Below are positions 24,169-48,925 of a stretch of 64,000 nt of DNA, piece after piece; position 1 is the stretch's first letter, and every line of letters starts with the position of its first letter. The position numbers and the translations under genes were made by a program. Source of the stretch: Candidatus Spongiisociaceae bacterium (GTDB taxonomy: Bacteria > Actinomycetota > Acidimicrobiia > Spongiisociales > Spongiisociaceae); assembly GCA_965202665.1 (NCBI GenBank), contig OZ241841.1, positions 1,184,001-1,248,000 of the forward strand, read 5' to 3'. The notes under the pieces are model-generated. The model was given only the letters and a program-made list of their open reading frames with translations, ran no database searches and was not told where the DNA came from.

Positions 24169-24194
24169 CCCGCCCCGTTCGCTATTTTTGGGGA

Positions 24195-24461: not shown

Positions 24462-24474
24462 CGACCCCCCCCCC

Positions 24475-25610
24475 CCCTACCTTTGTCTTATCGGCTTTGA
24501 GTTTATTCTTGGCCGGTCGCTCGGCATAGCGGGCAGGGCTGTCCCTCCCTTGTCATGCGGATGAGGCGATCGCGCCGGTGAGCGTACCAAGTAAGCGACT
24601 TCGGGAAGGAACCGGAGACGAAGGGCGATCGGCCGCAGATAGGAGTGTTGGCGGGTGTGGATGTGGGCAAGGAACGACATCGGGCGCAAGCCCTGACCGC
24701 GGACGGGGAGCCGCTGTTTGAGGGTTCGGTCGGCAACGACCCGGCCGCGGTGGAGGAACTGCTGGACCAGGTGGTGGCCGCCGCCGGGGAGGAACATACC
24801 CCGTTGGTGGTGGTGGATATGATCTCCGGCGGGGCGGTGTTGCTACTGGCGGCCACTGAACGGCGGGGGATACCGGTGGCTTATGTGACCGGGTTGCGGA
24901 TGCGCCGAGCCGCCCAACTATACGACGGCACGGCTAAAACGGATCCGAAAGACGCCTGGGTTCTAGCTGACTACGCCCGACGCAACCTCGACCGGCTCAA
25001 CGTCGTGCAGGCAACCGATCAGCAGTTGGCTCGTATGCGGGCGTTGAACGGACACGACGAAGACCTGGCCGCCGATCAAAAGGGGATCGTCAACCGTCTC
25101 CGGGAAGCGCTGCTCAGCACCCGCCCCGGCCTGGAACGGGTTATCGGCAACCGGTTGGCCAGTCCCGGAATCTTGGACGTTCTTCGTAAATATCCGACCA
25201 TCGGGCAACTGCGGCGAGCGGGCCGGGCCCGCTTTCCGCAACCTTATTCACAAACGGTCTCCCCGCCTGTCGGACAAAGCCGCCCCTCTTATCTGGGAAG
25301 CGGTGAAATCCCAACCCATGGAACTTCCCGCCGCGGAAGCCTGGGCCCAGATCATCCCCAACCTCGCCGACGCCCTCGACCGAACAGGCAACAAACGGCT
25401 CAAAAACGCCATGCACCAAGCCGCCTTCGTCGCCATCCGAAACGACCCCCACGCCCAACCCTGCCAAACCAAACGCGACCAAGGCAAAAACCACCGCACC
25501 GCCCCCCGCCGCCGTCACCCGCCGACACAGCACACATCATCCTCACCATGCTCAAAACCCAAACCCCCAACACCAACCCAACACAACTTGACAAACAGAC
25601 AGGAACACCC
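24475..25610 (+). mobile_element. IS110-family element, transposase frameshifted and internally deleted
   Basis: 24645 onward: GVDVGKERH...VVD...KTDPKDAWVLA (DEDD domain); remnant GNKRLKNAMHQAA; ~165-bp non-coding leader; TTGACA near the right end; poly-C on both flanks. Confidence 0.8.
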
Positions 25611-31537: not shown

Positions 31538-32308
31538 TCAGCCGCCGCGGCGGGGAAGGGCGCGGGTGGCGGGGTCTATAACATGCAGGTCAGGCAAAGT
31601 GTCAGCGGCTAAAACAGCGGGGCGGGCCCGGTTGGAAGGAGTCACAATCAGAACAGCCTCCATCGAGGCGCAACACGAGTGGGACGGCCCGCCGCATGCA
31701 AATCGGAGAGAACCCGGGTCGCCATCACCGCGAACGGCAACTGCGGATCCTTCATCATCAACAACGCCGGGAGAGCCCCCGCGTCTGACGGCCGGTGGCG
31801 CACAAATCGAACAGAACCCCCACCGCGAGCGGCGCGAACGGTAACTGCTGGGTCTGATTGACCAGGATGAATTCCCTTCCCCCCCCCCCCGCTTCTACCT
31901 GCGACGCGGGATCACCCGCGTCTGCTGACCTGCCGCCATCGTATGCAAATCCGGAAGCCGCCCCGTCGCCAACACCCCCGCCCTCGCCATATTCGACGGA
32001 CCCGTCACCATCAACCCCATCGCCGCTGGGGAACGACCCGGCACGCCTGCTGGGTTCCCACCCCGCAGAGATCGCTGATGACCCCGGTTGCGAGAGTCCC
32101 GAAGACCGCCTTGTTGGAAGGACAGGTGACGAGAATTCCCCAACCCCCCCCCCCGTTACCTCCGGCGCGTCACCGCCCTCGTCGGTTGCGCCGGGCCCCT
32201 CGCGCACAGATCCGGCAACAGATCCGCCGCCAGCACCCCGAACACCGACATCCCCGACGGACTCGGAATCAGAATCGCCGTCTCGCGAAAACCCTTGCCC
32301 CCCCCCCC
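31538..32308 (-). repeat. Array C: six ~125-bp TRD-tip cassettes with three poly-G tracts (32298-32308 G11, 32144-32154 G11, 31879-31890 G12)
   Basis: Cassette peptides AILIPSPSGMSVFGVLAADLLPDLCARGPAQPTRAVTRRR*, GILVTCPSNKAVFGTLATGVISDLCGVGTQQACRVVPQRRWG*, GLMVTGPSNMARAGVLATGRLPDLHTMAAGQQTRVIPRRR*, FILVNQTQQLPFAPLAVGVLFDLCATGRQTRGLSRRC*, ALLMMKDPQLPFAVMATRVLSDLHAAGRPTRVAPRWRLF*, AVLIVTPSNRARPAVLAADTLPDLHVIDPATRALPRRGG*. Confidence 0.88.
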
Positions 32309-35300
32309 TAACGGAATTTAGGTCCGGCATTGCGTCGGACGCAAACGCAGTGTCAGATGTCCCCCTACCTGAACTGTTGGAAAAAGATATCGCCTCATCA
32401 ACTCTCTCCGCAGGAAACATCTTAGATATAGTTCGAACCGATGAAAGAATCAAGTCATCCTCATACAACCACAACTTTGTGAAAGGCCGATACAACACCT
32501 CCCGAATACGCCTCTCGTCAAACACAAGTCTCCTACCTTTCTTCAAAGTAGCCTTCAAAGCACCAGTCCATTTTATGGCACTCAGCGGAGAATCAAGCGT
32601 AGACTCTTCAGCAAAGGTTTCACCATAAATTTCCACACGAGCCAACACATCATTGTATTCTTCAATAAGACGTTGAACCTTTATCTCCAATCGTTCTCTG
32701 CTAAAAGAATATACGTAAGTATCAAGATTAGTGGCCAAACCCAACGCGTGAGAATGAACAGCGGCATTTCGATGTTTCTTAACACCGCATATTGGTAAAA
32801 GCTCCTCAAAGGTGCCATCAGACAGATTCACCCAATCATGCTTTGGGGTTACGGGTACTTCTTCTAAATCAGGATTAGTTATATCTTCCATTTCTTCTAG
32901 CCACTGCCATTTTTCCTCTCTGCTATAGTAATCTGGCACCTGAGCATAAAATAGTGAGGCGGGCACTCCTATTCTTTTAGTCGGATTTCTAACTAAAAAG
33001 GATATTTGAACACCGCTACGAGAGCCGCCTTTTCCACTTATTGCATCAAATAACACATCACCTTCCTTAGCTCGCTCTTCTCCTGATTTATAAGCATTAC
33101 CCCGTAAGTTAACAACATAGATAGATGTAAAATCGTCCCTTACTGCAGCCCTGGCTCCAGCCAAAGAAGGGCCGTCTGTCAAAGAATTAGGGTGCACCAA
33201 GCCAATAATAGAAGGGTGGTCTCCATGCAAAATTCTATCAGAGCACCAACGCAAAGCTTTGATATATAAATTTTGTCCAGCCTTGCCAATACCACGGCAG
33301 GTAATCTCCTTATGTTTAGCTCCGTACGTGTCAGAAACTCGATCACTGATAACAGGATATTCTAGCTTGGTAGTGTCGTCACCTGCTTGCTTAGCACCAG
33401 CCGACCAGGGGGGGTTAGCTAAAATTACAGTCATCGGAGTACTATCCTGTTCATATCGACCTTGGATATTTTCTCTGAAAGTATCAAGTTCCTCCTGCTT
33501 CGGGCTACTGAGGAAAGTATCAGTTAGTACTATTTTTGTATAAGGCTGATATATCACTTCTTTCTCAAGTCTTTCGGAGTCTCGGGAATGCTTTGCTTCC
33601 TCGATTTTGATAGCTGCTATATAGTAGGCCAATAGAATAAACTCGTTAGCATGTAGTTCATTTTCATACTTGCGGTCCAAATCTTCATAACTGATTAGAT
33701 AGTTATCATCCTCGTCCTTCATTTCAATTAGACGCGCTAGGTAAGTACCAGTACCAGCGAAAGGGTCTAAAATGTGTAGATTTTCGCTCCCAATGGACCT
33801 CCCGAACTCTTTCTGGCAAATGGCGGCTGCCGAACGGATCATGAAGTCCACTATCTGTACCGGTGTATACACAATCCCCACCCGTTTTACCGTTTCTTTC
33901 ATCGCTGACTGGAAGAATCCATCGTAGATTGCCCGTAGGATATCCACCTTTTCCGCGCTGGTTACCGCTCCGGCAAAAGCGGCCTCCATCTGCCGATAAG
34001 CGCGGGTCAGGGGTCGTAATTCCTCCTCAAATGACACCTTCAACGCCTGGAAGGTTTCAAGAAATCTTTCTATCTCTTGACTGACTGGATTCTGTTTGGC
34101 GAAGCCGCTACCAGCCAACATAACATCAAACACCGGGATGGTCACCACATGCTGGGCGATCATCTCCTGCGCTTGAGCGGAGGCGACATGATCACCAATA
34201 GAATCACGAATGCCCGCCAAAAACCTTTGAAAGGCATCCTTAGCAGGACCACCCTCAGCAATCAGGTTATTTATACGGGTCTGCACCTGACGGCAAATGT
34301 CCGCCGCCCGCTCACCCCAGCGGGGATACATATGCTTGTCGCCGACGATTTCCACCACCTTGGAGGCGATTTCTTGGTTGAGTTGGAACTGCAACTGTTG
34401 TTGCACCCTCTTGCCATTTCCTTCATCAACTCCCGGTCCAACCGGGAAGGAGCACACTCGCAACGGAGCGTTCTTCGCCCAGGCGGAGGCGTTGCTGACG
34501 TAATACTCCATCCGGGAATCATGGGAGCGCAAAGCCCGCACTACCTCCCACACAGTATGAAAGTCGGAAGCTTCCAACTTCTTCTTCGGGTCGGCGTCCT
34601 CCGGAACCACCACCGGAATGATGATGTAACCCTTGCGTTTGCCGGGGGCGGTGCGCATCGCCCGGCCCACCGCCTGAGTGATATCCACCGTGGAAGTACG
34701 ACTGTTCAGAAATATAACCGCGTCCAAGCTAGGAACATCCACTCCTTCGGTGAGCACCCTCGCGTTACTGAGAATCCGGCACACCGGCCTCCCATCCCCC
34801 TCCGCTCTCACATCCCTCAGTTGCTCTAAAAGGTCGGTGCGTTCCGCGGCCGGAGTGGAACCGTCAATATGATTTACATCCAACCTCAGGAATTCTGAAA
34901 AATCCTTCCCCCCCCCCCCATCTCCAACCATGTTGCCCTTTTGCCGGGTCAGGGCATCCACCACTTTCGGCCACACCATGGCCGCCGTCTGTGAAGTGCG
35001 CACCAAGTTGGTGAAAGCGATAGCCGAACGGGCTGGCTCTCCGCCGTCGGCAAAAATCTGGCCGGGAAACCGACCCGGTAAAACCTCGGTGGTGGCGGGC
35101 GTTGCCAGGGCATCCCAGCATCCGGCCAGCTTCACCGCATCATCCAAAGCTAGATTAGTAGTTTCATGCACCAAAACCTCATGGGACCACCCAGCGTTGG
35201 CTAGGGACTGCATATAGGCCTCTTCCGTAGCGGTTATTACCAGCACCTCGTAGTCGGACAGGTAGCCGTCTTCAACCGCCTCACTGAACTCCATCTCGTA

Positions 35301-36506
35301 AAACCGCTCCCCAAAAGTCGCCGTGTCGTCCATGCTGTAGGAATCCCCTTCGAAACCGGGGGCCTCTATCTTCTTCCTCTGCCTAGCCGTAAAAACACGC
35401 GGAGTGGCCGTCATATATAAACGTTTGCCGCCCCGGATGTGGGCGTCTTCGTGCACTATGCGGAACGGGGACACCCCCAAACCTTCTTTGGATTCTTCTA
35501 TGCCGGTGGTGCGGTGGGCTTCATCGCAGATGATCAAATCAAACCCCCACCCCTCCGCGGCCCGGTTTTGCGCTTCGGCAATTCTGGGGGAGGACTGATA
35601 CGTGGAAAACACCACCTGCATCGCATCCCCCGGCACCGGCTTCGCCAACTCTTTAGCCAACCGCGCCGGGTCGGTGGTTACCGGAATAGCCAACTCCGTT
35701 AAATCACCGGCCGTGTCCGCCTGCGCCGAGCCTTTCCGCCCCGCCGTGGTGTCAGAGCACACCCCCAGATAACGCAACGGCATCTCCCGTTGCCGTGACC
35801 ACTCCCGCATCGTCTGCCCAATCAACGCAATCGACGGCACCAAATACAACACCCGGCCACCCAAACCGGCCACCTTCTCCGCCGCCCGTAACGCCACCAA
35901 CGACTTACCCGTCCCACACGGCAAAATCAACTGCCCCCGATCCACATCCCGAAACTTCTCCGCAATATCCCGCACCGCGTCCTGCTGAAAACCATGCAAC
36001 CGATGCTTAGGAGCCGGTGCGATCTCCAGCAGGTCGGGGGTTTCCGCGAACTCCCGCCAGTCATCCACCCACCGGTCCATCTCACTGGTATGCAACACCT
36101 CGCACCGCGGCTCCGCCTTACGCAACTTCGCCAACCCCACCTGGGAAACCCTGGCCGTCGCCACCAACAGGCGAGAAGCGAAATCAGCCGTCCCCGACGC
36201 CCCCAGGAAACTGTCCACCCCGGCGGTGGAAACCTCCGTAGCCCAAAACTTGCACTGGATAGCGCACAACCCGCCCCCGTAAGCCGGAGTTTGCCGGGCC
36301 ACAATATCAACCCCAATGTCCCGCCCGTACCCCCGTTCTTCCCGCTCCGGCCACTCACCCCACAACCACACCTCCTCAAAACGCTCCCGACCATACTCAC
36401 CCGGATGAGCCCGCAACGCCCCCGCCACCAACCGCTCAAACCGCCGCCCCGCCCTCCACGGATCATCCCCCCCAAAACCCCCCAACACCCCATCCAAAAA
36501 CGGCAT
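31758..36506 (-). CDS. Split Type ISP R-M enzyme copy C; as assembled it reads through to cassette 4
   Basis: DIGVDIVA...AIQCK, LPCGTGKS, DEAHRTTG, TEGVDVP, DPFAGTG, ANPPW, YRPFTK; lacks the constant C-terminal domain; internal G12 at 34908-34919. Confidence 0.9.
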   Translation of the reverse strand: MPFLDGVLGGFGGDDPWRAGRRFERLVAGALRAHPGEYGRERFEEVWLWGEWPEREERGYGRDIGVDIVARQTPAYGGGLCAIQCKFWATEVSTAGVDSFLGASGTADFASRLLVATARVSQVGLAKLRKAEPRCEVLHTSEMDRWVDDWREFAETPDLLEIAPAPKHRLHGFQQDAVRDIAEKFRDVDRGQLILPCGTGKSLVALRAAEKVAGLGGRVLYLVPSIALIGQTMREWSRQREMPLRYLGVCSDTTAGRKGSAQADTAGDLTELAIPVTTDPARLAKELAKPVPGDAMQVVFSTYQSSPRIAEAQNRAAEGWGFDLIICDEAHRTTGIEESKEGLGVSPFRIVHEDAHIRGGKRLYMTATPRVFTARQRKKIEAPGFEGDSYSMDDTATFGERFYEMEFSEAVEDGYLSDYEVLVITATEEAYMQSLANAGWSHEVLVHETTNLALDDAVKLAGCWDALATPATTEVLPGRFPGQIFADGGEPARSAIAFTNLVRTSQTAAMVWPKVVDALTRQKGNMVGDGGGGKDFSEFLRLDVNHIDGSTPAAERTDLLEQLRDVRAEGDGRPVCRILSNARVLTEGVDVPSLDAVIFLNSRTSTVDITQAVGRAMRTAPGKRKGYIIIPVVVPEDADPKKKLEASDFHTVWEVVRALRSHDSRMEYYVSNASAWAKNAPLRVCSFPVGPGVDEGNGKRVQQQLQFQLNQEIASKVVEIVGDKHMYPRWGERAADICRQVQTRINNLIAEGGPAKDAFQRFLAGIRDSIGDHVASAQAQEMIAQHVVTIPVFDVMLAGSGFAKQNPVSQEIERFLETFQALKVSFEEELRPLTRAYRQMEAAFAGAVTSAEKVDILRAIYDGFFQSAMKETVKRVGIVYTPVQIVDFMIRSAAAICQKEFGRSIGSENLHILDPFAGTGTYLARLIEMKDEDDNYLISYEDLDRKYENELHANEFILLAYYIAAIKIEEAKHSRDSERLEKEVIYQPYTKIVLTDTFLSSPKQEELDTFRENIQGRYEQDSTPMTVILANPPWSAGAKQAGDDTTKLEYPVISDRVSDTYGAKHKEITCRGIGKAGQNLYIKALRWCSDRILHGDHPSIIGLVHPNSLTDGPSLAGARAAVRDDFTSIYVVNLRGNAYKSGEERAKEGDVLFDAISGKGGSRSGVQISFLVRNPTKRIGVPASLFYAQVPDYYSREEKWQWLEEMEDITNPDLEEVPVTPKHDWVNLSDGTFEELLPICGVKKHRNAAVHSHALGLATNLDTYVYSFSRERLEIKVQRLIEEYNDVLARVEIYGETFAEESTLDSPLSAIKWTGALKATLKKGRRLVFDERRIREVLYRPFTKLWLYEDDLILSSVRTISKMFPAERVDEAISFSNSSGRGTSDTAFASDAMPDLNSVRGGGQGFSRDGDSDSESVGDVGVRGAGGGSVAGSVREGPGATDEGGDAPEVTGGGVGEFSSPVLPTRRSSGLSQPGSSAISAGWEPSRRAGSFPSGDGVDGDGSVEYGEGGGVGDGAASGFAYDGGRSADAGDPASQVEAGGGGREFILVNQTQQLPFAPLAVGVLFDLCATGRQTRGLSRRC

Positions 36507-37207
36507 TACCGCTGATCTTCCAACGAGGGGGGCAGGCCGGCGATTATCTCCGCCGAACGGACGCTCACATAAACCAACCGCCGCAAATGGCGAATCAACT
36601 CATACGGATCCTTCTCCCACCGCCACCACCCATTCGGATCATCAGTGATGCCAGACGGCTTATCATGCTTATGCCGCAGACTGTCGATCGCCCAATCCAA
36701 CGGCGACCGGCCCGACACCGTATACTCCTGAGCCCGCTCCGGGATGCCGACCAACCGGCACCGCTCGTTGATATGCAACTCGGTGAGGTCTTTCTTCCAT
36801 TCACCGTCCTCGTCCTTGACTTTGTTCCACCGCATCTGTTTCTGAATCCGGTAGGCCTTCTGGTCAGCCCCCTGGTCGGGGAAACCGTCCACCAAAACAT
36901 CCACTCCCTCATACTCAGGACAGTTTTCGTATCCGATGTGCAAATCCATCAGTTCCCGCCCCGCCACCCGGAAGGCCTCAAAATCAGCGGCCAAAGGCAC
37001 ACGGGGCAGATTGCGTTGCAAATCGTTGCGGTAGCGTTTCCGCCAATCGGGGGCGTGCATCACCCCGTACAGATACTCCCAAATGTCGTCCTTGGTAATG
37101 GAAGGGTCCTCATAGCGGGTTTGGAACTCGCTCAGACACCAGTCGGTGATGTTGTCGGTGTCCTCCGTCATACCCTCCAAATCCAAGTCCAAACCCTGAT
37201 CCATCAT
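36506..37207 (-). CDS. Stand-alone Type ISP C-terminal domain (copy 2)
   Basis: DNITD...ITKDDIWEYLYGVMHAPDWRKRYRNDLQRNLPRVP...AGRELMDLHIGYE...VSGRSPLDW aligns with the last ~230 aa of 7756-12591; TAATG overlap with copy C; likely start MMDQ at 37207. Confidence 0.88.
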   Translation of the reverse strand: MMDQGLDLDLEGMTEDTDNITDWCLSEFQTRYEDPSITKDDIWEYLYGVMHAPDWRKRYRNDLQRNLPRVPLAADFEAFRVAGRELMDLHIGYENCPEYEGVDVLVDGFPDQGADQKAYRIQKQMRWNKVKDEDGEWKKDLTELHINERCRLVGIPERAQEYTVSGRSPLDWAIDSLRHKHDKPSGITDDPNGWWRWEKDPYELIRHLRRLVYVSVRSAEIIAGLPPSLEDQR

Positions 37208-37252
37208 TGCGGCGGCCTTCCCTTCTCCCAACCCCACAAAGGGGAGTACTCT

Positions 37253-37559: not shown

Positions 37560-37969
37560 CCGATCTCTGTCGCAGGCAAGAGGGGAGGACGCGGACAACG
37601 GAGTCGCGGGCATATAACCCGATTCTCGTTTCCGGCAATTTCTGTCACAAGCAAGGCAGGACAGGACGGCGGGGGGCGCAGGCATACCATCCAAATTCCC
37701 ATTCCTGATATTTCCTACCACAAACGGAAGGGAACACGAACAGCAGGGTCCGCAGGCATATCGTCCGGTTCTCGTTTCTGGTTTTTCCCCTCACAAGCGA
37801 GGGAGGACACGAACGGCGGGGGGCGCAGGCATACCATCCAAATTCCCATTCCTGATATTTCCTGTCACAAGCGAGGAAGGGCGCGGGCGGCGGGGGCGCG
37901 GGCATATCATCCGATTCTCGTTTCCGATATTTCCTACCAAGAGCGGGGGAGGGCGCGGGTGGCGGGGTC
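37560..37969. repeat. Degenerate tandem repeat, ~73-bp unit, 5-6 copies
   Basis: Units start CGC(A/G)GGCATA at about 37605, 37677, 37751, 37824 and 37897; units 2 and 4 share cgcaggcataccatccaaattcccattcctgatatttcct. Confidence 0.85.
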
Positions 37970-38700
37970 AATTACGTGCAGGTCGGGCAAGGCGTCAGTG
38001 GCTAAAACGGCCGGGCGGGAACGGTTGGAGGGAGCCACGATCAGAATCGCCTCCATCGAGGCGCAACACGGGTGGGGCGGCCCGCCGCATGCAAATCGGA
38101 GAGAATCCGGGTCGCCATCACCGCGAACGGCAACTGCGGATCCTTCATCATCAACAACGCCGGGGGAGCCCCCGCGTCTGGCGGCCGGTGGCGCACAAAT
38201 CGAACAGAACCCCCACCGCGAGCGGCGCGAACGGTAGCTGCTGGGTCTGATTGACCAAGATGAATTCCCTTCCCCCCCCCCCCGCTTCTACCTGCGACGC
38301 GGTATCACCCGCGTCTGCTGACCTGCCGCCATCGTATGCAAATCCGGAAGCCGCCCCGTCGCCAACACCCCCGCCCTCGCCATATTCGACGGACCCGTCA
38401 ACATCAACCCCGTCGTCGGGGAACGACCCGGCACGCCTGCTGGGTTCCCACCCCGCAGAGATCGCTGATGACCCCGGTTGCGAGAGTCCCGAAGACCGCC
38501 TTGTTGGAAGGACAGGTGACGAGAATTCCCCAACCCCCCCCCCCGTTACCTCCGGCGCGTCACCGCCCTCGTCGGTTGCGCCGGGCCCCTGGCGCACAGA
38601 TCCGGCAACAGATCCACTGCCAGCACCCCGAACACCGACATCCCCGACGGACTCGGAATCAGAATCGCCACCTCGTGAAAACCCTTGCCCCCCCCCCCCC
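37934..38700 (-). repeat. Array B: six TRD-tip cassettes with three poly-G tracts (38688-38700 G13, 38534-38544 G11, 38272-38283 G12)
   Basis: Same six cassettes in the same order as array C; cassette stops at 38546, 38404, 38288, 38151, 38041 and 37934. Confidence 0.88.
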
Positions 38701-41700
38701 TTGATTGAGGTCTGGCACCACCCCAGCGGCGGACAGATTATCAGACGCACCCCTCATAGAACCACTCGCCACATCAATCCCCTCAACCTCCGCCTCACGG
38801 GGGAACATCGCGGACACCGTTTTCACCGACGAAAGAATCAGGTCATCCTCATACAACCACAACTTCGTATAAGGCCTATACAACACCTGCCTAATACGAC
38901 CCTCATCAAACACAATACGCCTGCCCTTCCGCAAAGACCCCTTCAACGTATCCGTCCATTTAATCGCATCCAACCTAGTATTTGCAGTAACTTCCCCAAT
39001 GTCCTCCCCATGTATCTCTACTAAATCCAATGTCCTGTCATAAATATCGATCAGCCGCTTAACCTTTTGAATAAGCATTTCACGGCTGAACGAATAAACA
39101 TATGTGTCACAAGTAGTTGTTACACCACGAGCATGCTTAGCGACAGCTACTTGCCCATTTTCCTTTTGAATATCACAAACCGCAAGCAGATTATCAAATG
39201 TTCCATCCGACAGATTTACCCAATCGTGGCGGGGATTTACCGGAACTTCCTCTAGCTGTGAGCTCGTCACATCCCAAATTTTTTCCAACCATTCCCACTT
39301 ATCATCCAAACTCATATAATCAGGAACTTGCGCATAATGAAGGTTGGCAGGCTGGCTGATGTCTTTAGATGGATTTCTTACCAGAAAAGTAATTTGAACA
39401 CCGTTGCGTGTTCCTTCGCCAAAAACGGTGTCTCCTTCTCGTTGCCTTTCATCACCCTGTTTAAAGGCGTTGCCTCGCAGATTAATCACATAGATGTCAG
39501 TGAACTCATCCCGTAACGTTCCCCGAACACCGGCCAACGAAGTGCCGTCGGCCAAAGAGTTAGGATGGACAAGCCCGACAATAGCGGGGTGGTCGCCGCG
39601 TTGCGTATTCGGTAAAATCCGATCCGTGCACCAACGCAAGGCCTTCACATACAGATTACCCATAGCGTTGCCTCCGGGCGACTGTCCTACCACTTCTTTA
39701 TGTTTGGCTCCGTAGGTTTTCTCCACCCGTAGGCCAACATCGTGATATTCAAGATTAGGGTTGTCATCGCCCGCCAACTTCTGACCGGATGACCAAGGCG
39801 GATTGGATATTATCACAGTCATCGGAGTAGCATCCTGTTCAAGACGAACTCGTATATTGTCGCCTAAAACATCAAACCCTTCCTGCTCAGGACTAGCCAA
39901 CAACGTATCAGTAAACACTATTTTTTTGAAAGGGTCGTATTTGACTTTACTATCAGACTTTTCTCCATCCCGAAAATGCTTAGATTCTTCTATTTTGAGA
40001 GCGGCGATGTAGTAGGGTAACAGGATAAACTCGTTGACATGCAGTTCTTGTTGATATTTGCGGTCCAGATCTTCAGTGCTTATAAGGTAGTTGCCATCTT
40101 CATCTTTCATCTCTATCAGACGAGAAATGAAAGTCCCGGTGCCAGCGAAAGCATCTAAGATATGTATATTTTCACTACCTATGGATCTCCTGAACTCTTT
40201 TTGACAGATAGCAGCCGCTGAGCGTATCATAAAGTCCACTATCTGCACCGGAGTGTATACTATCCCAACCCGCTTCACCGTTTTTTTCATAGCCGCCTGG
40301 AAAAACCCCTCATAGATTTCTCGCAGAATATCCACCTTTTCGACACTAGATACCGCCCCGGCGAATGCGGCCTCCATTTGTCTGTAGGCGCGGGTTAGAG
40401 GTCTTAGCTCCTCCTCGAACGATACATTCAACTTACGGAATTTTTTGAGTAGCCTTTCTATTTCTTTGCTTACTGGATTCTGCTCGGAGAAACCGCTTTC
40501 AGCCAGCATTACATTGAACACCGGGATGGTGACCACATGCTGAGCGATCATCTCCTGAGCTTGCTCTAAAGTAACGTGATTCCCAACCGACTGACGGATG
40601 CCTTTCAAGAAACGTTGGAAGGCATTCTCGGCAGGGCCGCCTTCGGCTATCAGGTGGTTGATACGGGTTTGCACCTGGCGGCAGATGTCAGCCGCGTGCA
40701 CTCCCCAGCGGGGATACATTTGCTTGTCGCCGATGATTTCCACCACTTTGGATGCAATTTCTTGGCTGAGTTGGAACTGCAACTGATGTTGCACCCGCTC
40801 GTCGTAACCTTCTTCTTCAACATCCCGGCCCAACCGGCAAGTGACCACCCGTAGCGGAGCGTTTTTCTTCCAGGCGGAGGCGTTGCTGACGTAATGTTCC
40901 ATCCGGGAGTCGTGGGAACGCAAAGCCCGCACCACCTCCCACACAGTCTGAAAGTCGGAGGCTTCCAGCATCTTCTGCGGGTCGGCGTCCTCCGGGACTA
41001 CTACAGGAATAATGATGTAGCCTTTGCGTTTGCCGGGGGCGGTGCGCATCGCCCGGCCCACCGCTTGGGTTATATCCACCGTGGAAGTGCGGCTGTTCAG
41101 AAAAAGCACCGCATCCAAGCTGGGAACATCCACCCCTTCGGTTAGCACCCGGGCGTTGCTGAGAATCCGGCACACCGGCCTCCCGGATTCACCCCCGCCC
41201 CCTGCCCTCCCCCTCAGTTGCTCTAGCAGATCAGTCCGTTCCGCGGCCGGAGTGGAACCGTCAATATGATTTACATCCAACCGCAAAAATCTATTTTCGC
41301 CACCCCCCCCCCCGTTCCCTACCAAGTCTCCCCTTTGCCGAGTCAGGGCGCCTACCACTTTCGGCCACACCATGGCAGCCGTCTGCGAGGTGCGCACCCG
41401 GTTGGTGAAAGCGATGGCCGAACGGGCAGGCTCGCCGCCCTCGGGGAAAATCTGGCCGGGAAACCGACCCGGCAAAACCCCGGTGGTGGCGGGAGTGGCC
41501 AGGGCATCCCAGCATCCAGCCAGTTTCACCGTATCGTCCAAAGCCAAATTGGTGTCCTCGCGCACTATCATCTCGTGAGCGAAATCGGCGTTGGCCAAAG
41601 ACTGCAAATAAGCCTCGGCGGAGGCGGTGATAACCAGCACCTCGTAGTCGGACAGATAACCGCCTTCCACCGCCTCGCTGAACTCCATTTCATAAAACCG

Positions 41701-42906
41701 TTCCCCGAAAGTCGCCGCGTCGTCCATGCTGTAGGAGTCCCCTTCGAAACCGGGGGCCTCTATCTTCTTCCTCTGCCGAGCGGTGAACACACGAGGGGTG
41801 GCCGTCATATACAAACGCTTGCTACCCCGGATGTGGGCGTCTTCGTGCACTATGCGGAACGGGGACACCCCCAGCCCTTCTTTGGATTCTTCGATGCCGG
41901 TGGTGCGGTGCGCCTCATCGCAGATAATCAAATCAAACCCCCACCCCTCCGCGGCCCGCTGTTGCGCCTCGGCAATTTTGGGGGAGGACTGATACGTGGA
42001 AAACACCACCTGCATCGAATCCCCCGACACCGGCTTAGACAACTCTTTAGCCAGCCGCGCCGGGTCGGTGGTTACCGGAATAGCCAACTCAGTTAAATCA
42101 CCGGCTATGTCCGCCTGCGCCGAGCCCTTCCGCCCCGCCGTGGTATCCGAGCACACCCCCAGATAACGTAGCGGCATTTCCCGTTGCCGGGACCATTCCC
42201 TCATCGTCTGCCCAATCAACGCAATCGACGGCACCAAATACAACACCCGGCCACCCAACCCCGCCACCTTCTCCGCCGCCCGCAACGCCACCAACGACTT
42301 ACCCGTCCCACACGGCAAAATCAACTGCCCCCGATCCACATCCCGAAACTTCTTCGCAATATCCCGCACCGCGTCCTTCTGAAACCCATACAACCGATGC
42401 TTAGGAGCCGGTGCGATCTCCAGCAGGTCGGGGGTTTCCGCGAACTCCCGCCAGTCATCCACCCACCGGTCCATCTCACTGGTATGCAACACCTCGCACC
42501 GCGGCTCCGCCTTACGCAACTTCGCCAACCCTGTCCGGGAAACCCGCGCCGTCGCCACTAACAGGCGCGATGCAAAATCAACCGTGCCCGACGCGCCCAA
42601 GAAACTGTCCACACCGGCGGTGGAAACCTCCTTTTCCCGGAACTTGCATTGAATGGCGCACAACCCGCCCCCGTAAGCCGGGGTCTGGCGGGCCACAATA
42701 TCAACCCCGATATCCCGCCCGTATCCCCGTTCTTCCCGTTCCGGCCACTCACTCCACAACCACACCTCCTCAAACCGCTCCCGCCCGTACTCACCCGGAT
42801 GAGCGCGCAACGCACCCGCCACCAACCGCTCAAACCGCCTCCCCTGAACCACCGACTTCGGATCATCCGCCACCAAACCTCGCAACACCTCCTGCAAATA
42901 CGGCAT
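38659..42906 (-). CDS. Split Type ISP R-M enzyme copy B; as assembled it ends in its own tip (PDLNQGGGGARVFTRWRF*)
   Basis: Same motif set (AIQCK, LPCGTGKS, DEAHRTTG, DAFAGTG, SNPPW); close paralog of copy C; internal G11 at 41303-41313. Confidence 0.9.
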   Translation of the reverse strand: MPYLQEVLRGLVADDPKSVVQGRRFERLVAGALRAHPGEYGRERFEEVWLWSEWPEREERGYGRDIGVDIVARQTPAYGGGLCAIQCKFREKEVSTAGVDSFLGASGTVDFASRLLVATARVSRTGLAKLRKAEPRCEVLHTSEMDRWVDDWREFAETPDLLEIAPAPKHRLYGFQKDAVRDIAKKFRDVDRGQLILPCGTGKSLVALRAAEKVAGLGGRVLYLVPSIALIGQTMREWSRQREMPLRYLGVCSDTTAGRKGSAQADIAGDLTELAIPVTTDPARLAKELSKPVSGDSMQVVFSTYQSSPKIAEAQQRAAEGWGFDLIICDEAHRTTGIEESKEGLGVSPFRIVHEDAHIRGSKRLYMTATPRVFTARQRKKIEAPGFEGDSYSMDDAATFGERFYEMEFSEAVEGGYLSDYEVLVITASAEAYLQSLANADFAHEMIVREDTNLALDDTVKLAGCWDALATPATTGVLPGRFPGQIFPEGGEPARSAIAFTNRVRTSQTAAMVWPKVVGALTRQRGDLVGNGGGGGENRFLRLDVNHIDGSTPAAERTDLLEQLRGRAGGGGESGRPVCRILSNARVLTEGVDVPSLDAVLFLNSRTSTVDITQAVGRAMRTAPGKRKGYIIIPVVVPEDADPQKMLEASDFQTVWEVVRALRSHDSRMEHYVSNASAWKKNAPLRVVTCRLGRDVEEEGYDERVQHQLQFQLSQEIASKVVEIIGDKQMYPRWGVHAADICRQVQTRINHLIAEGGPAENAFQRFLKGIRQSVGNHVTLEQAQEMIAQHVVTIPVFNVMLAESGFSEQNPVSKEIERLLKKFRKLNVSFEEELRPLTRAYRQMEAAFAGAVSSVEKVDILREIYEGFFQAAMKKTVKRVGIVYTPVQIVDFMIRSAAAICQKEFRRSIGSENIHILDAFAGTGTFISRLIEMKDEDGNYLISTEDLDRKYQQELHVNEFILLPYYIAALKIEESKHFRDGEKSDSKVKYDPFKKIVFTDTLLASPEQEGFDVLGDNIRVRLEQDATPMTVIISNPPWSSGQKLAGDDNPNLEYHDVGLRVEKTYGAKHKEVVGQSPGGNAMGNLYVKALRWCTDRILPNTQRGDHPAIVGLVHPNSLADGTSLAGVRGTLRDEFTDIYVINLRGNAFKQGDERQREGDTVFGEGTRNGVQITFLVRNPSKDISQPANLHYAQVPDYMSLDDKWEWLEKIWDVTSSQLEEVPVNPRHDWVNLSDGTFDNLLAVCDIQKENGQVAVAKHARGVTTTCDTYVYSFSREMLIQKVKRLIDIYDRTLDLVEIHGEDIGEVTANTRLDAIKWTDTLKGSLRKGRRIVFDEGRIRQVLYRPYTKLWLYEDDLILSSVKTVSAMFPREAEVEGIDVASGSMRGASDNLSAAGVVPDLNQGGGGARVFTRWRF

Positions 42907-43595
42907 TACCGCTGGCCTTCCAACGAGGGGGGCAGGCCGGCGATTATCTCCGCCGAACGGACGCTCACATAAACCAACCGCCGCAAATGGCGAATCAACT
43001 CATACGGATCCTTCTCCCACCGCCACCACCCATTCGGATCATCAGTGATGCCAGACGGCTTATCATGCTTATGCCGTAGGCTGTCGATGGCCCAATCCAA
43101 CGGCGACCGGCCCGACACCGTATACTCCTGAGCCCGCTCCGGGATGCCAACCAACCGGCACCGGTCGTTGATATGCAACACGGTGCGGTCAACCTTCCCC
43201 TTGCCGTCCTCGCCTTTGGCCCGCTCCCACCGCATCTTCTTCTTAATCCGGTAGTCCTCCGGGTCGGGGGAACCGTCCACCACAACTTCCACCCCTTCAT
43301 ATTCGGGACAGGTCTCGTATCCGATGTGCAAATCCATCAGTTCCCGCCCCGCCGCCCGGAAGGCCTCAAAGTCGGCGGCCAAAGGCACCCGGGGCAAATT
43401 GCGTTGCAAATCGTTGCGGTAGCGTTTCCGCCAGTCGGGGGCGTGCATCACCCCGTACAGATACTCCCAAATGTCATCTTTGGTAATGGAAGGGTCCTCA
43501 TAGCGGGTTTGGAACTCGTTCAGACACCAGTCAGTGATGTTGTCGGTGTCCTCCGTCATACCCTCCAAGCCCAAACCCTGGTCCTGGCCCATCAT
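42906..43595 (-). CDS. Stand-alone Type ISP C-terminal domain (copy 1)
   Basis: Near-identical to 36506-37207; AGGAGG RBS; TAATG overlap with copy B. Confidence 0.88.
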   Translation of the reverse strand: MMGQDQGLGLEGMTEDTDNITDWCLNEFQTRYEDPSITKDDIWEYLYGVMHAPDWRKRYRNDLQRNLPRVPLAADFEAFRAAGRELMDLHIGYETCPEYEGVEVVVDGSPDPEDYRIKKKMRWERAKGEDGKGKVDRTVLHINDRCRLVGIPERAQEYTVSGRSPLDWAIDSLRHKHDKPSGITDDPNGWWRWEKDPYELIRHLRRLVYVSVRSAEIIAGLPPSLEGQR

Positions 43596-43889
43596 TCCGG
43601 CAAACCCTCCCTCCTCCTACGCCCCCCGCCCGGGGGAACGCCCTATCCTACCCCGGCGTTTCCGCACCCGCCAAATTTTTTTCAAACCTGCTCGAGCCCA
43701 CCCTCCCACCCCCCGCCCACCCACCCGAAAATATAAAGCACTTTTTCGGTTTCAACAAGGGGGTCGTTTCCGGAGGATGGCAAAAGCCCTGCTAGAAGGG
43801 CTTTTTTGGCTAAGAATATTTTTCGCGAGGCGGGATTCTAAAACAAACACACCATTCAGGGCTAGAACAATCTACTCCTCCGACCTCGT

Positions 43890-44506
43890 TCAAAAACGGG
43901 GAAGGGCGCGGGTGGCAGGGTCTATCACGTGCAGGTCGGGCAAAGTGTCTGTTGCTAAAACGGCCGGGCGAGCCCGGTTGGAAGGAGCCACAATCAGAAT
44001 CGCCTCCACCGAGGCAGAACCCGGGTGGGGCGGCCCGACGCGAGCACCGCGAACGGCAACCGCTGGGGCTGATTGGCCAAGACCGATCCCACCCGCTACC
44101 TCCAGCGCAGTATCACCCGCGTCTGCTGACCGGCCGCCATCGTATGCAAATCCGGAAGCCACCCCGTCGCCAACACCCCCGCCCTCGCCATATTCGACGG
44201 ACCCGTAAACATCAGCCCCGTCGCCGGGGAACGACCCGGCAGGCCTGCTGAGTTCCCACCGCGCAGAGATCGCTGATGACCTGGGCTGCGAGAGTCCCGA
44301 AGACTGCCTTGTTCGACGGACAGGTGATGAGAATTCTTGGCTCCCCCCCCCCCCGCTACCTCTAGCGCGGTATCACCCTCGTCTGTTGCGAACCCTTGAT
44401 CGCCGCCAGGTCCGTCAGCCATGCCGCCGCCAGGGCCTGGAAAATCATATTGTTGCCGTTGCTGATCAGAATCACCTTCGCGTGACGACCCTTGCCCCCC
44501 CCCCCC
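43890..44506 (-). repeat. Array A: four intact TRD-tip cassettes plus one deleted remnant, two poly-G tracts (44495-44506 G12, 44343-44354 G12)
   Basis: VILISNGNNMIFQALAAAWLTDLAAIKGSQQTRVIPR*, ILITCPSNKAVFGTLAAQVISDLCAVGTQQACRVVPRRRG*, LMFTGPSNMARAGVLATGWLPDLHTMAAGQQTRVILRWR*, a cassette 4/5 chimeric remnant, AILIVAPSNRARPAVLATDTLPDLHVIDPATRALPRF*. Confidence 0.85.
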
Positions 44507-47500
44507 TAACTGAGTTAAGATCTGGTTGCACATCGTGCGCGATGGGGGTATCGACTGTACCTCGACCGGATCCGCTGGTGAAAGAAACCGCTTCAGTGAT
44601 TTCGCTATGGGGGAACAGTCGGGATGCGCTTCTCACCGATGATAAAATACGGTCATCCTCGTACAACCATAGTTTAGTAAACGGCCGATACAGTACTTGG
44701 CGGATACGAGCAGGGTCAAATACTATTTTTCTGCCTCTTCGCAGTGAATCTTGGATACGGGCAATGCTCCGTAGATATAGTGAATCCTCCACCAACTTCT
44801 CAATCCATTGTTTAGTTGGATGAGTATGGTTTCTTACTTGCAGAAGATACGCATCGTATTCGTCTAATAAATCTCTTATTTTATCTTCCAGGGCTTGCCG
44901 ATTGTATGAGTAGGCCATGAAATCACAGGCGGTAGCTATTCCCAGCGCACTCTTTTGAGAAACTGCTGGTTCTTGATTTGCACCTACAGTGCATATAGGC
45001 ACCATTTTTTCATATGTTCCATCAGACAGGTTTACCCAATCATGTTTTGAGGTCACCGGTACTTCTTTCAATTGATCACTGGTTATATCGCCTAGAAACT
45101 CTAGCCAGTCCCACTTTTGATTTAGTTTTAGGTAATCCGGCACTTGAGCGTAACGGAGAATGGCAGGCCCTTTCAAGTCCTTGCGAGGATTTCGAACCAA
45201 AAATGTTATCTGTGTCCCAAGCATGGCACCAGCTCCGAACACTTTGTCTCCTTCTTTTTGCCATTCTTCACCCGCTTTTTTGGCATTACCTCGTAGGTTA
45301 ACTACATAGATATCAGTAAATTCATCACGAAGAGATGCTCTCATTCCAGCTAAACTGGTCGCATCAGTTAAAGAATTGGGGTGAACAAAACCAATCATTT
45401 TCCCTCGGTTAGCAGGTTCTTTATCTAGTTGATCGGTTGCCCATCTTATAGCCTGTACAAATAAGTTTCCAGCGGCATTTCCACCAAGTCTTAGACCAAG
45501 AGCTTTATGAGATTTATTATAAGTTTCCCTAACTCGCTCTGCTACTTTAGGGAACTGTAATTTGCCAACTTGTCCAGTTCTATTGGCCCCAGAACCCCAA
45601 GGTGGGTTACTAAAAATAATATCCACAGGAGTCTGATCCAAACGGGCCGCTCTTCCAACATTACCCTCAGCATCATCTAATTCGCGTTGTTGACCCCGTC
45701 CACCCCCCAAATTGCCGGAAAGGAAAGTATTCTGCAAAACCAGCCCCTCCCAGGGTTGGTAGTCAGGATCCTGTTCATCACGCCGGTTAATTCTCTTTCG
45801 GTAAGTTTCCTCCACTTGGAGGGCGGAAACATAGTATGCGAGCATAACGATTTCTGATCCATGCATATTTTTCCATACATTCTCTAGCGCGTTGTCGGGT
45901 ACAATAGGTTTTCCATCCCTGCCAAAGGCATCTAGTAAACGCGTGGGGAAGGTACCGGTTCCACAGAACGGATCATAGAACTGAACATATTGATCAGAAA
46001 TATGAACACCAAATTCTTTTTCACAGATAGCGGCAGCCGATTTAATAATAAAATCAACTATTTGAATAGGTGTGTAGACTATACCAAGTTGTTTTATCGC
46101 GTTAGGCATAGCTTCCTTAAAGAATCCATCATATATTTCCCGAAGGACATCTACCTTTTTATCGGCATCTCCAGCTGCATCAAACACCTCTTTCATGCGA
46201 TCATAAGCTCGTTGCAGAGGTGCACAATCACCTTGAAAATTTATTCCCTGCATTTCCAGCGTTTTGCGAAGAGTGTCAATACGTCGACTAATAGGATTCA
46301 CCTGTGCAAAATGCCCGTGGAACATTGCATCGAAAACGGGAATAGTTACAATATGTTGAGCGACCATTTCTTCGGTACTATCGGGATCAACCTGACCACC
46401 CATTACCTTCCCTAACTCATAAACTAACTCTTCAAATGCTTGTTGACACACCGGATCGGTAAGAGAAGATTTTAGTCGCGAGCGAACGTCGGCGCAAACC
46501 TTTGCCGCCTGCTGACCCCATCGAGGCCACATTTTCTTGTCTCCAACTTTATCTACTATTACCGATGCCAACTGCTGGGTGAGTTGAAATCGCAACTGTT
46601 CCACTTCCCGTTGGGTTCGTTTGGTTTTTTTCCCATTGCCAATAACCCTTACATTGAACTTGCCTTTTAGCTGGCATATATCGGGGTCGGACACCCAATA
46701 GTCAACGCGGTCATCGTGCGATCGTAAAGCGCGAACAACGTTGGCTACGTTGGCGAATTCGCTTTGTGCAAGTTTCCGGTTAGGATCTTCTTCTTGCTCA
46801 TCTATCACAACGGGAATAACTATGTGCCCTTTAGTTTTGTGATCAGTGGTACGCATCGCCCGCCCTACCGCTTGAGTAATGTCTACTTCCGATGTTTTAG
46901 GATCTAAGAAAATAACCGCATCTAGGCCGGGAACGTCTACCCCTTCAGTTAGAACTTTCACATTTGTCAAAATCTCACAAATGGGCGATTCCGCATCCTC
47001 ATCTGTTGTCGGTGGTGCATTAGTAACAGTTCGCAACCGGCTTATACGTTTAGTGCGTTCCGCAGCGGGAGTATTGCCATCCACATGATTGACTTTTAAC
47101 TGAAGATAACGGTTAGGTTCTTCGTCAATAGCCGATTGGCGGGAAGCCAGCTCCGCCCATACCATGGCTACTTCTCGGCTTCGGGGAATTTTGTTAGCGT
47201 AAAGCAGGGCGGTACGGGTGGGCCACCCTAATTTTATATCTGTTTTTCCGGCAGGGCGGTGAGGGTCCACCTTTTCAGAATATGGTGTGGACAGGGCATC
47301 CCAAGCACCAGCTAATCGTACTCCATCGCTTAATGACAAGGCTGGCTCTCGCTCTCCAGTTTCAGGGTTTTTCTTACCTTGAGGTTCGTAACCCGGTATG
47401 TCCGCCCATTCCATACCTATATGATCGGAATGGGCCGCCTGCCATCGAAAGCCACGACTAGCTGCTACTACATGTATCTGATAGTCAGACAGAACCGGGC

Positions 47501-48767
47501 GACCATCCGTACGTAGGTTGATCTTCTCTGAAGTTTTACTATCAATCCTTTTACCATCCACAGCCTCCGCGAAAGACAGCTTATAGAAGACCGGCCCGAA
47601 CACACCTTCATCATCCATAGAATAAGATTGCCCATCATAATGCTTATTTTCTATACGACTCTTTTGATGTTCAGTAAAAACCCGGGGGGTAGCGGTCATA
47701 AAAAGCCTTTTGCGACAAGGGATTTGATCATTGCTCAAACCAGTCTGAAATAAGCTACCTTCAGTTTTGTTAATGCCGGTAGTTCGATGCGCCTCATCAA
47801 AAAATGCTAAATCGAACATAAACCCTGGAATAGATTTGATAGATTCTGCGACCATCGGTGACGACTGATATGTACAGAATACGGCTCGCGTCGTTCTCTT
47901 CGCAATGGGCTTTTTAAGAGCGATCGTTAGATGATTGGGATCAGTAGTTACAGGAGCAAATAGTTCGGTGAGCCGACGACGGTCTTCACGACCAACAGAA
48001 CTATCGGAACACACCGCCAAAAACTCTAGCGGCAGAGTTTTGTTGGCGGACCATTCTTTCATACTTTGATCCATCAATGCTAAAGAAGGTACTAGAAATA
48101 ATACAGTTGCTCCCCCCCCCCCCCGTTCCGTCGCCCATAACGAGACTAGCGTCTTTCCGGTACCACATGGCAAAATTAGCTGTCCTCGATCAAAGTCTCT
48201 AAACCCATTATATATTTTATCGATAGCGTCCCGTTGAAATGGATGCGGAGTTTTTGGATGGCTTCGGATAACTAACTTGTTAGGCTCGTCGATAAGAGTA
48301 CGCCAGTCTTCCACCCACCCGTCCATTTCAACAGTGTGCAGAACCTTCCCATCTCGATGGCGGTGTAATGCTTCCTCCCCTTTTCGAGAAACCGGAGCGG
48401 TGGCCACCAACAAAATAGACCGGAACAGATCCGATGAAGGGCGGGAATGTGTGATAAAACGGTCCACCGCTCTGGTAGATATCTCGTTGCGATGAAACTT
48501 GCACTGAACAGCGCACAGGCCGCCACCGTACGCATCGGTTTGCTCCGCCACCAAATCTATACCATCGTCGCCAGCCGCGTACCCGTGCCTCTCCCGATCC
48601 GGCCACTCCCCCCACAACCAAACGTCCCGGAACCGATCCTTGCCCCATTCTCCCGGGTGGGCTAGAAAGGCGGCTTTAACTAATTCCTCAAAGTCACGAC
48701 CTTTTTCCACGGCGGTTGCCGTACGGTCTTCTATCATCTCCAATGCCTCAGTCAAATAACCCATCAT
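44472..48767 (-). CDS. Split Type ISP R-M enzyme copy A (divergent); ends PDLNSVRGGGARVVTRR*
   Basis: AAGGAGG RBS before MMGY; DDGIDLVA...AVQCK, LPCGTGKT, DEAHRTTG, DPFCGTG, SNPPW; internal G13 at 48112-48124. Confidence 0.9.
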   Translation of the reverse strand: MMGYLTEALEMIEDRTATAVEKGRDFEELVKAAFLAHPGEWGKDRFRDVWLWGEWPDRERHGYAAGDDGIDLVAEQTDAYGGGLCAVQCKFHRNEISTRAVDRFITHSRPSSDLFRSILLVATAPVSRKGEEALHRHRDGKVLHTVEMDGWVEDWRTLIDEPNKLVIRSHPKTPHPFQRDAIDKIYNGFRDFDRGQLILPCGTGKTLVSLWATERGGGGATVLFLVPSLALMDQSMKEWSANKTLPLEFLAVCSDSSVGREDRRRLTELFAPVTTDPNHLTIALKKPIAKRTTRAVFCTYQSSPMVAESIKSIPGFMFDLAFFDEAHRTTGINKTEGSLFQTGLSNDQIPCRKRLFMTATPRVFTEHQKSRIENKHYDGQSYSMDDEGVFGPVFYKLSFAEAVDGKRIDSKTSEKINLRTDGRPVLSDYQIHVVAASRGFRWQAAHSDHIGMEWADIPGYEPQGKKNPETGEREPALSLSDGVRLAGAWDALSTPYSEKVDPHRPAGKTDIKLGWPTRTALLYANKIPRSREVAMVWAELASRQSAIDEEPNRYLQLKVNHVDGNTPAAERTKRISRLRTVTNAPPTTDEDAESPICEILTNVKVLTEGVDVPGLDAVIFLDPKTSEVDITQAVGRAMRTTDHKTKGHIVIPVVIDEQEEDPNRKLAQSEFANVANVVRALRSHDDRVDYWVSDPDICQLKGKFNVRVIGNGKKTKRTQREVEQLRFQLTQQLASVIVDKVGDKKMWPRWGQQAAKVCADVRSRLKSSLTDPVCQQAFEELVYELGKVMGGQVDPDSTEEMVAQHIVTIPVFDAMFHGHFAQVNPISRRIDTLRKTLEMQGINFQGDCAPLQRAYDRMKEVFDAAGDADKKVDVLREIYDGFFKEAMPNAIKQLGIVYTPIQIVDFIIKSAAAICEKEFGVHISDQYVQFYDPFCGTGTFPTRLLDAFGRDGKPIVPDNALENVWKNMHGSEIVMLAYYVSALQVEETYRKRINRRDEQDPDYQPWEGLVLQNTFLSGNLGGGRGQQRELDDAEGNVGRAARLDQTPVDIIFSNPPWGSGANRTGQVGKLQFPKVAERVRETYNKSHKALGLRLGGNAAGNLFVQAIRWATDQLDKEPANRGKMIGFVHPNSLTDATSLAGMRASLRDEFTDIYVVNLRGNAKKAGEEWQKEGDKVFGAGAMLGTQITFLVRNPRKDLKGPAILRYAQVPDYLKLNQKWDWLEFLGDITSDQLKEVPVTSKHDWVNLSDGTYEKMVPICTVGANQEPAVSQKSALGIATACDFMAYSYNRQALEDKIRDLLDEYDAYLLQVRNHTHPTKQWIEKLVEDSLYLRSIARIQDSLRRGRKIVFDPARIRQVLYRPFTKLWLYEDDRILSSVRSASRLFPHSEITEAVSFTSGSGRGTVDTPIAHDVQPDLNSVRGGGARVVTRR

Positions 48768-48925
48768 CGCTCCTCCTTGTCCTCCTGTTCCTAATGTCCC
48801 TTGGCAATAGCAGTGCTTCCACGACGGACGCGGATCTCGCCAAAAAACCAACCGGTGGCATTGTGTTCCCCGTCAATCCCTCCAGCCACAGCCTAGTAAT
48901 ATTCATTATACCATCTCTTCTTAAT

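Follow-up and report, generated by a model that had tools for sequence, protein, structure and literature searches.

The window analyzed here, a stretch of 64,000 nt from a genome of Candidatus Spongiisociaceae (contig OZ241841.1), contains three tandem minus-strand genes, A, B, and C, each followed by an array of cassettes of approximately 110 nt and G tracts (Table 1). A Pfam scan recovers the Type ISP domain order (Mrr-like nuclease, SF2 helicase, coupler, and N6-adenine methyltransferase [MTase]) in all three, and NPPW, DEAH, and Walker A motifs are found in the translations of the core genes. In gene A, these parts (PF13156, PF04851, PF00271, PF22240, and PF02384) are followed by the first half of a specificity domain, matching positions 6 to 147 of the 342 positions of PF18135. 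The rest of this domain, with the core helices and the guide, is encoded elsewhere: PF18135 is divided between the cores (approximately positions 6 to 150) and separate second-subunit genes (165 to 339), two of which are shared by the three cores within the window. The stop of one of these genes, 42906-43595, overlaps the ATG of gene B. A fourth Type ISP gene, 7756-12591, is unsplit and aligns to LlaBIII, LlaGI, and DrdV; it has its own ON/OFF tract (G13 at 8475-8487) and was used as an in-genome reference. Such an ON/OFF tract lies in the helicase part of all four Type ISP genes of the window.

Table 1 Features of the window (positions in nucleotides of the 64,000-nt window)
Feature	Position	Strand	Basis or remark
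Type ISP core gene A	44472..48851	-	Likely start ATG 48767 (start context)
ON/OFF tract of A, G13, helicase part	48112..48124	-	Gain or loss of one base truncates A at residue 252 or 283
Own tip of A (Loop VI segment, DL-N)	44472..44594	-	Frame simulation, alignment
Array A tract 1, G12	44495..44506	-	G13 in contigs of runs X3 and X4
Cassette 1' of A (DL-A), widespread class	44362..44472	-	Class, 44/303 cassettes
Array A tract 2, G12	44343..44354	-	
Cassette 2 of A (DL-C)	44212..44334	-	
Cassette 3 of A (DL-H)	44096..44215	-	
Tract 3 scar in A	44088..44096	-	14 nt shorter than in B (alignment)
Remnant of cassettes 4 and 5 in A, unreachable	43994..44083	-	131 nt deleted, 104 + 27
Cassette 6 of A (DL-H)	43890..44000	-	Via double pass-through
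Promoter-like site before second-subunit gene	43728..43755	-	Consensus match only; 1 found, 0.3 expected
Second-subunit gene (core helices, guide; rest of specificity domain)	42906..43595	-	PF18135 positions 165-339
Type ISP core gene B	38659..42906	-	ON/OFF tract G11 at 41303-41313
Array B: tracts G13, G11, G12; seven tips	37934..38700	-	Simulation
Second-subunit gene, second copy	36506..37237	-	Stop overlaps ATG of C
Type ISP core gene C	31758..36506	-	ON/OFF tract G12 at 34908-34919
Array C: tracts G11, G11, G12; seven tips	31538..32308	-	Simulation
Type ISP gene, unsplit, with a single Loop VI segment and lacking an array	7756..12591	+	PF18135 positions 2-341

Canonical Type ISP enzymes share their domain set and MTase-TRD fold with the genes of the window, as judged from sequence and from a structural model; the top Foldseek matches of the MTase-TRD model of C are 5FFJ (E = 9.5e-35) and 4XQK (E = 1.1e-33). 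One-strand m6A methylation and ATP-driven cleavage also characterize Type ISP enzymes and are putative activities here. The canonical enzymes, however, are single chains with one fixed Loop VI, whereas the genes of the window encode a split chain with a Loop VI that appears exchangeable. On sequence grounds, A, B, and C are a split derivative of Type ISP, departing from its single-polypeptide organization.

The separation of the second subunit extends to relatives, where it is a distinct open reading frame in all 24 testable loci in which it follows the array. Among 49 loci, the second-subunit gene is positioned downstream in 32, upstream in 9, and divergently in 8; an invariably upstream position, suggested by 14/14 loci of the family, was refuted by this wider set. 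In three loci (L047, L048, and L049, from G014, G018, and G020), the second-subunit gene itself contains a (GA)17-26 repeat, which is out of frame in L047; a C13 tract immediately precedes the second half in L060, and a poly-C tract separates the divergent genes in L050, L051, L054, and L055. A second Type ISP subfamily (L056:6664-7900, L057, L058, and L059, from G019, G015, G011, and G008, respectively) carries a single four-base repeat that chooses the gene's own segment or one or two cassettes and that has decayed in L058; the second half lies downstream, and one of the frames continues into it in L057 and L059, yielding a fusion.

Homopolymer tracts and repeats also occur elsewhere in this genome. 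Five copies of a unit of approximately 73 nt, starting with the end of cassette 6, follow array B (37583-37968), and a C13 tract (24465-24477) lies near the end of an open reading frame with a DUF2277 match (22521-24461). Genome-wide, there are 23 promoter-like sites of the form TTGACA - poly-G - TAGCGT with spacers of 15 to 17 nt (e.g., G000:C1 1013917, 1460524, 1583553, and 486774). All but one of these (22/23) precede large proteins of approximately 1,200 to 3,000 or more residues, which have signal-peptide-like starts and fall into three paralogous groups, and the sites likely mark a phase-variable repertoire of surface proteins.

Reading frames of array A and the loss of its third tract

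We varied the length of each G tract by ±1 base in simulation, which yielded five distinct ends for gene A and seven apiece for arrays B and C. At tract 1 of array A, G12 leads to the gene's own tip (stop at 44472), G13 leads to cassette 1' (44362), and G11 passes through to tract 2; there, G11 leads to cassette 2 (44212), G12 to cassette 3 (44096), and G13 to cassette 6 (43890). Every frame and stop given for this array in the preliminary description, made from the sequence alone, was reproduced, as was its count of two tracts and five tips, which fits a rule of 2n + 1 tips for n tracts. The pass-through frame does reach cassette 6 as had been described, but the open reading frame that had been cited for it, 43890-44162, merely reflects a mechanical GTG start. 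Tract 1 sits within Loop VI of A's own tip, so the last strand of that tip is available only from the G12 frame. The residue that follows the DL motif in the five tips is N, A, C, H, and H, with DL-H common to cassettes 3 and 6. Within the arrays, all cassettes lie on the same strand, and gene C as assembled reads through two tracts into cassette 4. The tracts themselves are not due to chance, as genome-wide counts of G/C runs comprise 1 run of length 9, none of length 10, and then 24, 28, and 14 runs of lengths 11, 12, and 13, respectively.

Alignment with array B showed the two sites at which array A is shorter, one at tract 3 and one in cassettes 4 and 5. Where B and C have tract 3, A contains the interrupted GCGGGTGGG, and the remnant of cassettes 4 and 5 lacks a DL motif, both as originally described. 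Tract 3 had been said to be lost together with the two cassettes that it addressed; the loss stands, but tract 3 of B and C addresses three tips (4, 5, and 6), of which two were lost. Array B has two LPFA motifs 104 nt apart, so the 131 nt missing from A can be divided into 104 nt, which would fuse cassette 4 with 5, and 27 nt, an in-frame loss of the DL loop. The simplest history suggested by the alignment would therefore combine these two deletions with the loss of the tract. The remnant is in the frame of cassette 3 and behind the stop of that cassette and is thus unreachable. The direction of change is indicated by the sister of A's core in our tree (L043 from G001, support 1.00), whose array comprises three tracts and seven tips; together with the remnant visible in A, this marks the change in A as a loss. 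A second case of repeat loss is seen in L089, in which the second repeat has decayed, the pass-through is in frame with the third cassette, and the orphaned fourth cassette is decaying, its DL changed to DV.

Homopolymers and near-identical paralogues assemble poorly, and the assembly may derive from the sample of run X1, which raised the question of whether the short form of array A, or even the arrays themselves, could be assembly errors. The remnant is spanned by gap-free contigs in runs X3 and X4, two sponge metagenomes of another study (P2), with 5 and 7 other letters, while run X7 barely covers it. The short form of A is no assembly artifact, and with a further 61 + 15 arrays present in other assemblies, such errors are so improbable an explanation as to be almost negligible.

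Cassette 1' had been described as a replacement, differing from cassette 1 of B and C. The two do differ, but cassette 1' fills the corresponding slot in L042, L044, L045, and L046, whereas the B/C form occurs, among loci L042 to L060, in L043 only. Since relatives commonly carry the 1' type, the replacement is more likely to have occurred on the B/C side; the view of cassette 1' as a newcomer in A was rejected on these counts and on the size of its class.

Depending on the order of A's deletions, array A by itself represents one or two events that each had a 1-in-3 chance of keeping the register, and it is weak evidence for a maintained frame architecture.

Frame register in related arrays

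We therefore turn to the comparative data, on which the claim that selection maintains this architecture has come to rest. A DNA query found matches in 8/28 genomes of the family and in 0/32 genomes from other families of the order; a protein query found matches in 15/28 genomes of the family. A search with the second subunit retrieved 65 loci from Candidatus Spongiisociaceae, Poriferisocius, Poriferisodalis, Aldehydirespirator, and other Acidimicrobiia, together with two Dehalococcoidia and one Caldilineaceae. There were 78 core ends, 70 of them distinct, and the array set comprises 64 arrays, three of which are from the window; L051 (which has a gap of N), the four loci of the second subfamily, and L098 (one cassette) were left out.

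In these 64 arrays, the frame steps by -1 between adjacent cassettes without an intervening repeat in 172/173 pairs. Cassette frames are thus anything but random relative to the tracts; random frames would have spoken against a maintained architecture. Across a repeat there is no fixed step, and the three frame offsets occur 27, 23, and 17 times. The -1 step recurs in all 33 pairs from further metagenomes (34 loci with 17 arrays, 15 of them new). Although cassettes are separated by 18 different spacings, all of these are 2 mod 3 (161/161), and the register is kept across 44 shuffled cassette orders. Blocks usually consist of two cassettes per repeat (or the gene's own tip plus one), with three after the last repeat.

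We next consider the 2n + 1 rule, which had been proposed as a prediction for homologous arrays. An automatic count gave agreement in 52/64 arrays, but included two false passes (both arrays of L107) and six false misses (L055, L092, L096, L100, L113, and L125). After a check by hand, and with L077 dropped as it ends at a contig end, exactly 2n + 1 tips were found in 56 of the 63 complete arrays, with n ranging from 1 to 4. The seven exceptions comprise a nonsense codon (L052), a frameshift cutting off three cassettes (L078), and, in five arrays, a dead frame (L066, L093, L107 twice, and L120). The value 2n + 1 is a logical ceiling, below which these 7/63 arrays fall. Only 5/304 cassettes are unreachable. 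A single in-frame cassette without a repeat follows a split Type ISP gene at L098:6762-7200 and constitutes the n = 0 case. At L100:11676-12700, an own-type tip with a tract inside Loop VI lies in the middle of an array and acts as a third switch, which indicates that tips and tracts move as units.

The alternative frames are also kept open. Among unique cassette cores, taken from regular blocks with L051, L077, and L078 excluded, stops occur in 0/304 of the frames that must stay open, versus approximately 112 expected under synonymous recoding; in frames free of any reading need, stops occur in 126/206, versus approximately 106 expected. The stop of one cassette lies within the start of the next in 148/164 pairs, an overlap that partly builds in the -1 step but leaves the open frames unexplained. 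Because the arrays are kin, all of these counts overstate independence, and we give no P value.

The slot occupied by G tracts in the window is filled in relatives by G, C, GA/AG, TC, or units of 4, 5, or 7 nt. Across the arrays, the units are thus of 1, 2, 4, 5, and 7 nt, and no triplet repeat is found in the switch slot. In many relatives (e.g., L042 and L048), no Loop VI segment precedes the first repeat, and only a distal cassette can therefore supply one. As a control, we considered PF18135 across the phylum, where 46/401 genomes carry it (a tally that includes the unpublished G372); none of 29 loci retrieved from other genomes contains such a repeat. No relative of the second subunit was found among 18 candidate stretches in viral contigs. 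Plasmid matches to the second subunit numbered 228 records, all at <60% identity; of these, the 30 listed are annotated as Type ISP or helicase or are unannotated.

An alternative role for the cassettes would be that of a silent store for recombination or gene conversion, with repeats that are incidental or act only as ON/OFF switches. The shuffled cassette orders are consistent with such a store, as is the 104-nt deletion in A, which runs between homologous motifs. The arrays are, moreover, far more alike than their cores (95% versus 63% between B and C; 90% versus 53% between A and B), from which we infer that conversion spreads arrays between paralogues. Yet a silent store needs neither the frame law nor open alternative frames, both of which are near perfect, and a Pfam scan of 22 open reading frames of the window found no recombinase. 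Recombination accounts for how arrays evolve rather than for how a tip is chosen, and we consider a silent store improbable.

Differences in tract length bear on how a tip would be chosen. Tract 1 of A, G12 in the window, is one base longer (G13) in the X3 and X4 contigs, where it selects cassette 1', and a single G that changes the tip is the sole difference over 7,725 nt between L170 and L171, two of the further metagenome loci; these differences were seen between contigs of different runs or assemblies and could be assembly choices. They are consistent with slippage that would switch tract length within a population. Slippage could instead be transcriptional or ribosomal, so that each cell holds a mix of tips and has several specificities at once, and this predicts the frame law and the open frames equally well. 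Polymerase slippage favors A/T runs. Long runs of 2- to 7-nt units point to replication slippage instead, as do length differences between strains at the DNA level, and a transcriptional or ribosomal origin seems very unlikely.

Exchange of Loop VI and comparison with known switches

To relate the cassettes to a known structure, we aligned them with characterized enzymes. Each cassette corresponds to LlaBIII residues 1334 to 1372 (our own count on the alignment of the reference gene), and LlaBIII residues D1318, R1319, and Y1321 land where they are placed in PMC4872093. According to the cited part of that work, base +3 is read by N1360 in LlaBIII and H1368 in LlaGI; for position +2 of Type ISP targets, no reader is known (PMC4872093). 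Loop VI lies in the cassette segment, and the residue after DL aligns with N1360 of LlaBIII or H1368 of LlaGI. The base-contacting residue D803 of DrdV, as given in the portion cited (10.1101/2021.01.06.425610), falls on the same DL+1 position by our own count. Cassette classes are seldom repeated within an array, with 29 duplicates versus a mean of 83 and a minimum of 63 after shuffling.

Based on these observations, we propose that nested slippery repeats route the reading frame of gene A into one of five copies of Loop VI, likely switching the target sequence, a reading to which we assign a probability of about 0.8. Replication slippage at a tract would pick a branch, such that one tip is translated. 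Skipped cassettes, read out of frame, would form a linker rich in glycine and serine, approximately 160 residues long for cassette 6 of A; the linker of C as assembled has 144 residues, including 42 glycines and 21 serines. The chosen tip may then fold back between the core and the second subunit, displacing the truncated own tip, which in arrays of the type found in the window would lose its last strand once the frame leaves its own course at tract 1. The residue after DL (N, A, C, or H) and nearby loops would set the base at +3 and perhaps +2, and this choice would serve methylation and cutting together. Moving the end of the domain to a second gene may have freed the C terminus for tip switching. 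Gene A, which has no second-subunit gene ahead of it, would use the one after its array.

A structural model is compatible with this placement. A three-chain model combining cassette 3 with the second subunit and the C core (cut before its own tip) reached a score of 0.86, whereas the best of three controls scored 0.00; the cassette touches both the core and the second subunit, with a contact agreement between runs of at least 92% and a partner pLDDT of at least 81. The mark used was passed by 116/157 solved complexes and 2/215 mismatched pairs, counts that are only roughly valid here. As the modeled chains are pieces of a solved fold, the pass shows likeness and not binding, and it is likely owed to resemblance to the solved LlaGI, LlaBIII, and DrdV structures. 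AlphaFold2 models of the read-through products of C and L048 have pLDDT values mostly below 50 after the core, with tips and cassettes unplaced; these models, built from alignments ending before the tip and with the second subunit absent, are uninformative.

The closest precedent is in Helicobacter pylori. In the sections cited of PMC3936762, one homopolymer turns Hpy99XIV (JHP1272) and HpyAXVI (HP1353-HP1354) ON or OFF, and a second appends a duplicate of a four-strand TRD segment; the duplicate is proposed to displace the resident segment and changes the bases at -1 and -2 from the methylated A, and one of the two enzymes, when overexpressed, retained part of its old specificity. As far as those sections go, the H. 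pylori switch shares the upstream ON/OFF homopolymer with all four Type ISP genes of the window. It also shares a repeat-dependent duplicate of the base-reading segment, which we mapped via LlaBIII and LlaGI and not via the H. pylori sequences; by our own conversion, position +3 of Loop VI here corresponds to -2 in H. pylori numbering. The H. pylori enzymes, in contrast, are described there as single-chain Type IIG proteins with one extra domain and two states, whereas the arrays described here belong to Type ISP genes with a helicase and have one to four nested repeats, three to eight tips, three frames that are read, a domain end on a separate gene, and many repeat units. The arrays work like the H. 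pylori switch yet lie outside its Type IIG group, and by analogy with this two-way precedent the choice of a tip would change Type ISP specificity.

We also considered whether the tips could be translated without any change in specificity, acting as an OFF state, as a switch between methylation only and restriction, or in tuning stability. The dead frame of some arrays would act as OFF, and cassettes 3 and 6 of A share the same DL-H. A separate ON/OFF tract is already present in all four genes, however; the duplication covers precisely the Loop VI segment that reads the bases, and distinct classes are retained within arrays. An unchanged specificity is thus unlikely.

Other known systems resemble these arrays in part. 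In the cited parts of PMC7383803, repeat length in Type I hsdS genes such as NgoAV alters the frame and thus the specificity, as we propose here, but the HsdS products are full-length, truncated, or extended forms with whole TRDs, and no tree of terminal cassettes appears there. In Streptococcus pneumoniae and Mycoplasma pulmonis, inverting hsdS loci offer several alternative specificities per locus (PMC7383803; see also PMC4948785 and PMC7557576). These loci switch by DNA inversion (PMC7383803, same portion), whereas here the cassettes stay in place and the frame selects among them; no inverted repeat of at least 30 nt is found within the arrays of the window. A 2025 review covers slippage and recombinases in general terms in the part cited (PMC12707154). 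In a search of the open-licence literature, largely at the level of titles and abstracts, we found no description of a multi-way, three-frame nested cassette array or of a split Type ISP enzyme. To our knowledge, known repeat-driven switches are ON/OFF or two-way, and multi-way specificity switching arises from DNA inversion. We think it probable that the arrays constitute a diversifier free of recombinases, in which n repeats form a ternary tree over DNA read in three frames and supply 2n + 1 modules to a two-subunit enzyme.

If this is true, up to seven outcomes would arise from slippage alone, at the cost of DNA that is open in three frames, a cost that is visibly paid given the absence of stops from all needed frames. 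A population could switch its target sequence in many ways without recombination, and the three genes with their ON/OFF tracts would give 5 x 7 x 7 tip combinations per genome. In sponge microbiomes, the module classes extend through Acidimicrobiia and reach Chloroflexota, and they would serve as a natural code book for positions +2 and +3 of Type ISP targets. In our tree, the cores of the arrays from the two Dehalococcoidia genomes and one Caldilineaceae genome (L092, L113, and L117) nest among those of Acidimicrobiia, and transfer between phyla is possible. The arrangement suggests that a piece of a DNA-binding domain may be swappable in the form of a tethered plug-in, a point of relevance to the persistent problem of changing the specificity of restriction enzymes. 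It also points to rapid bet-hedging, whether anti-phage or epigenetic, in uncultured bacteria associated with sponges.
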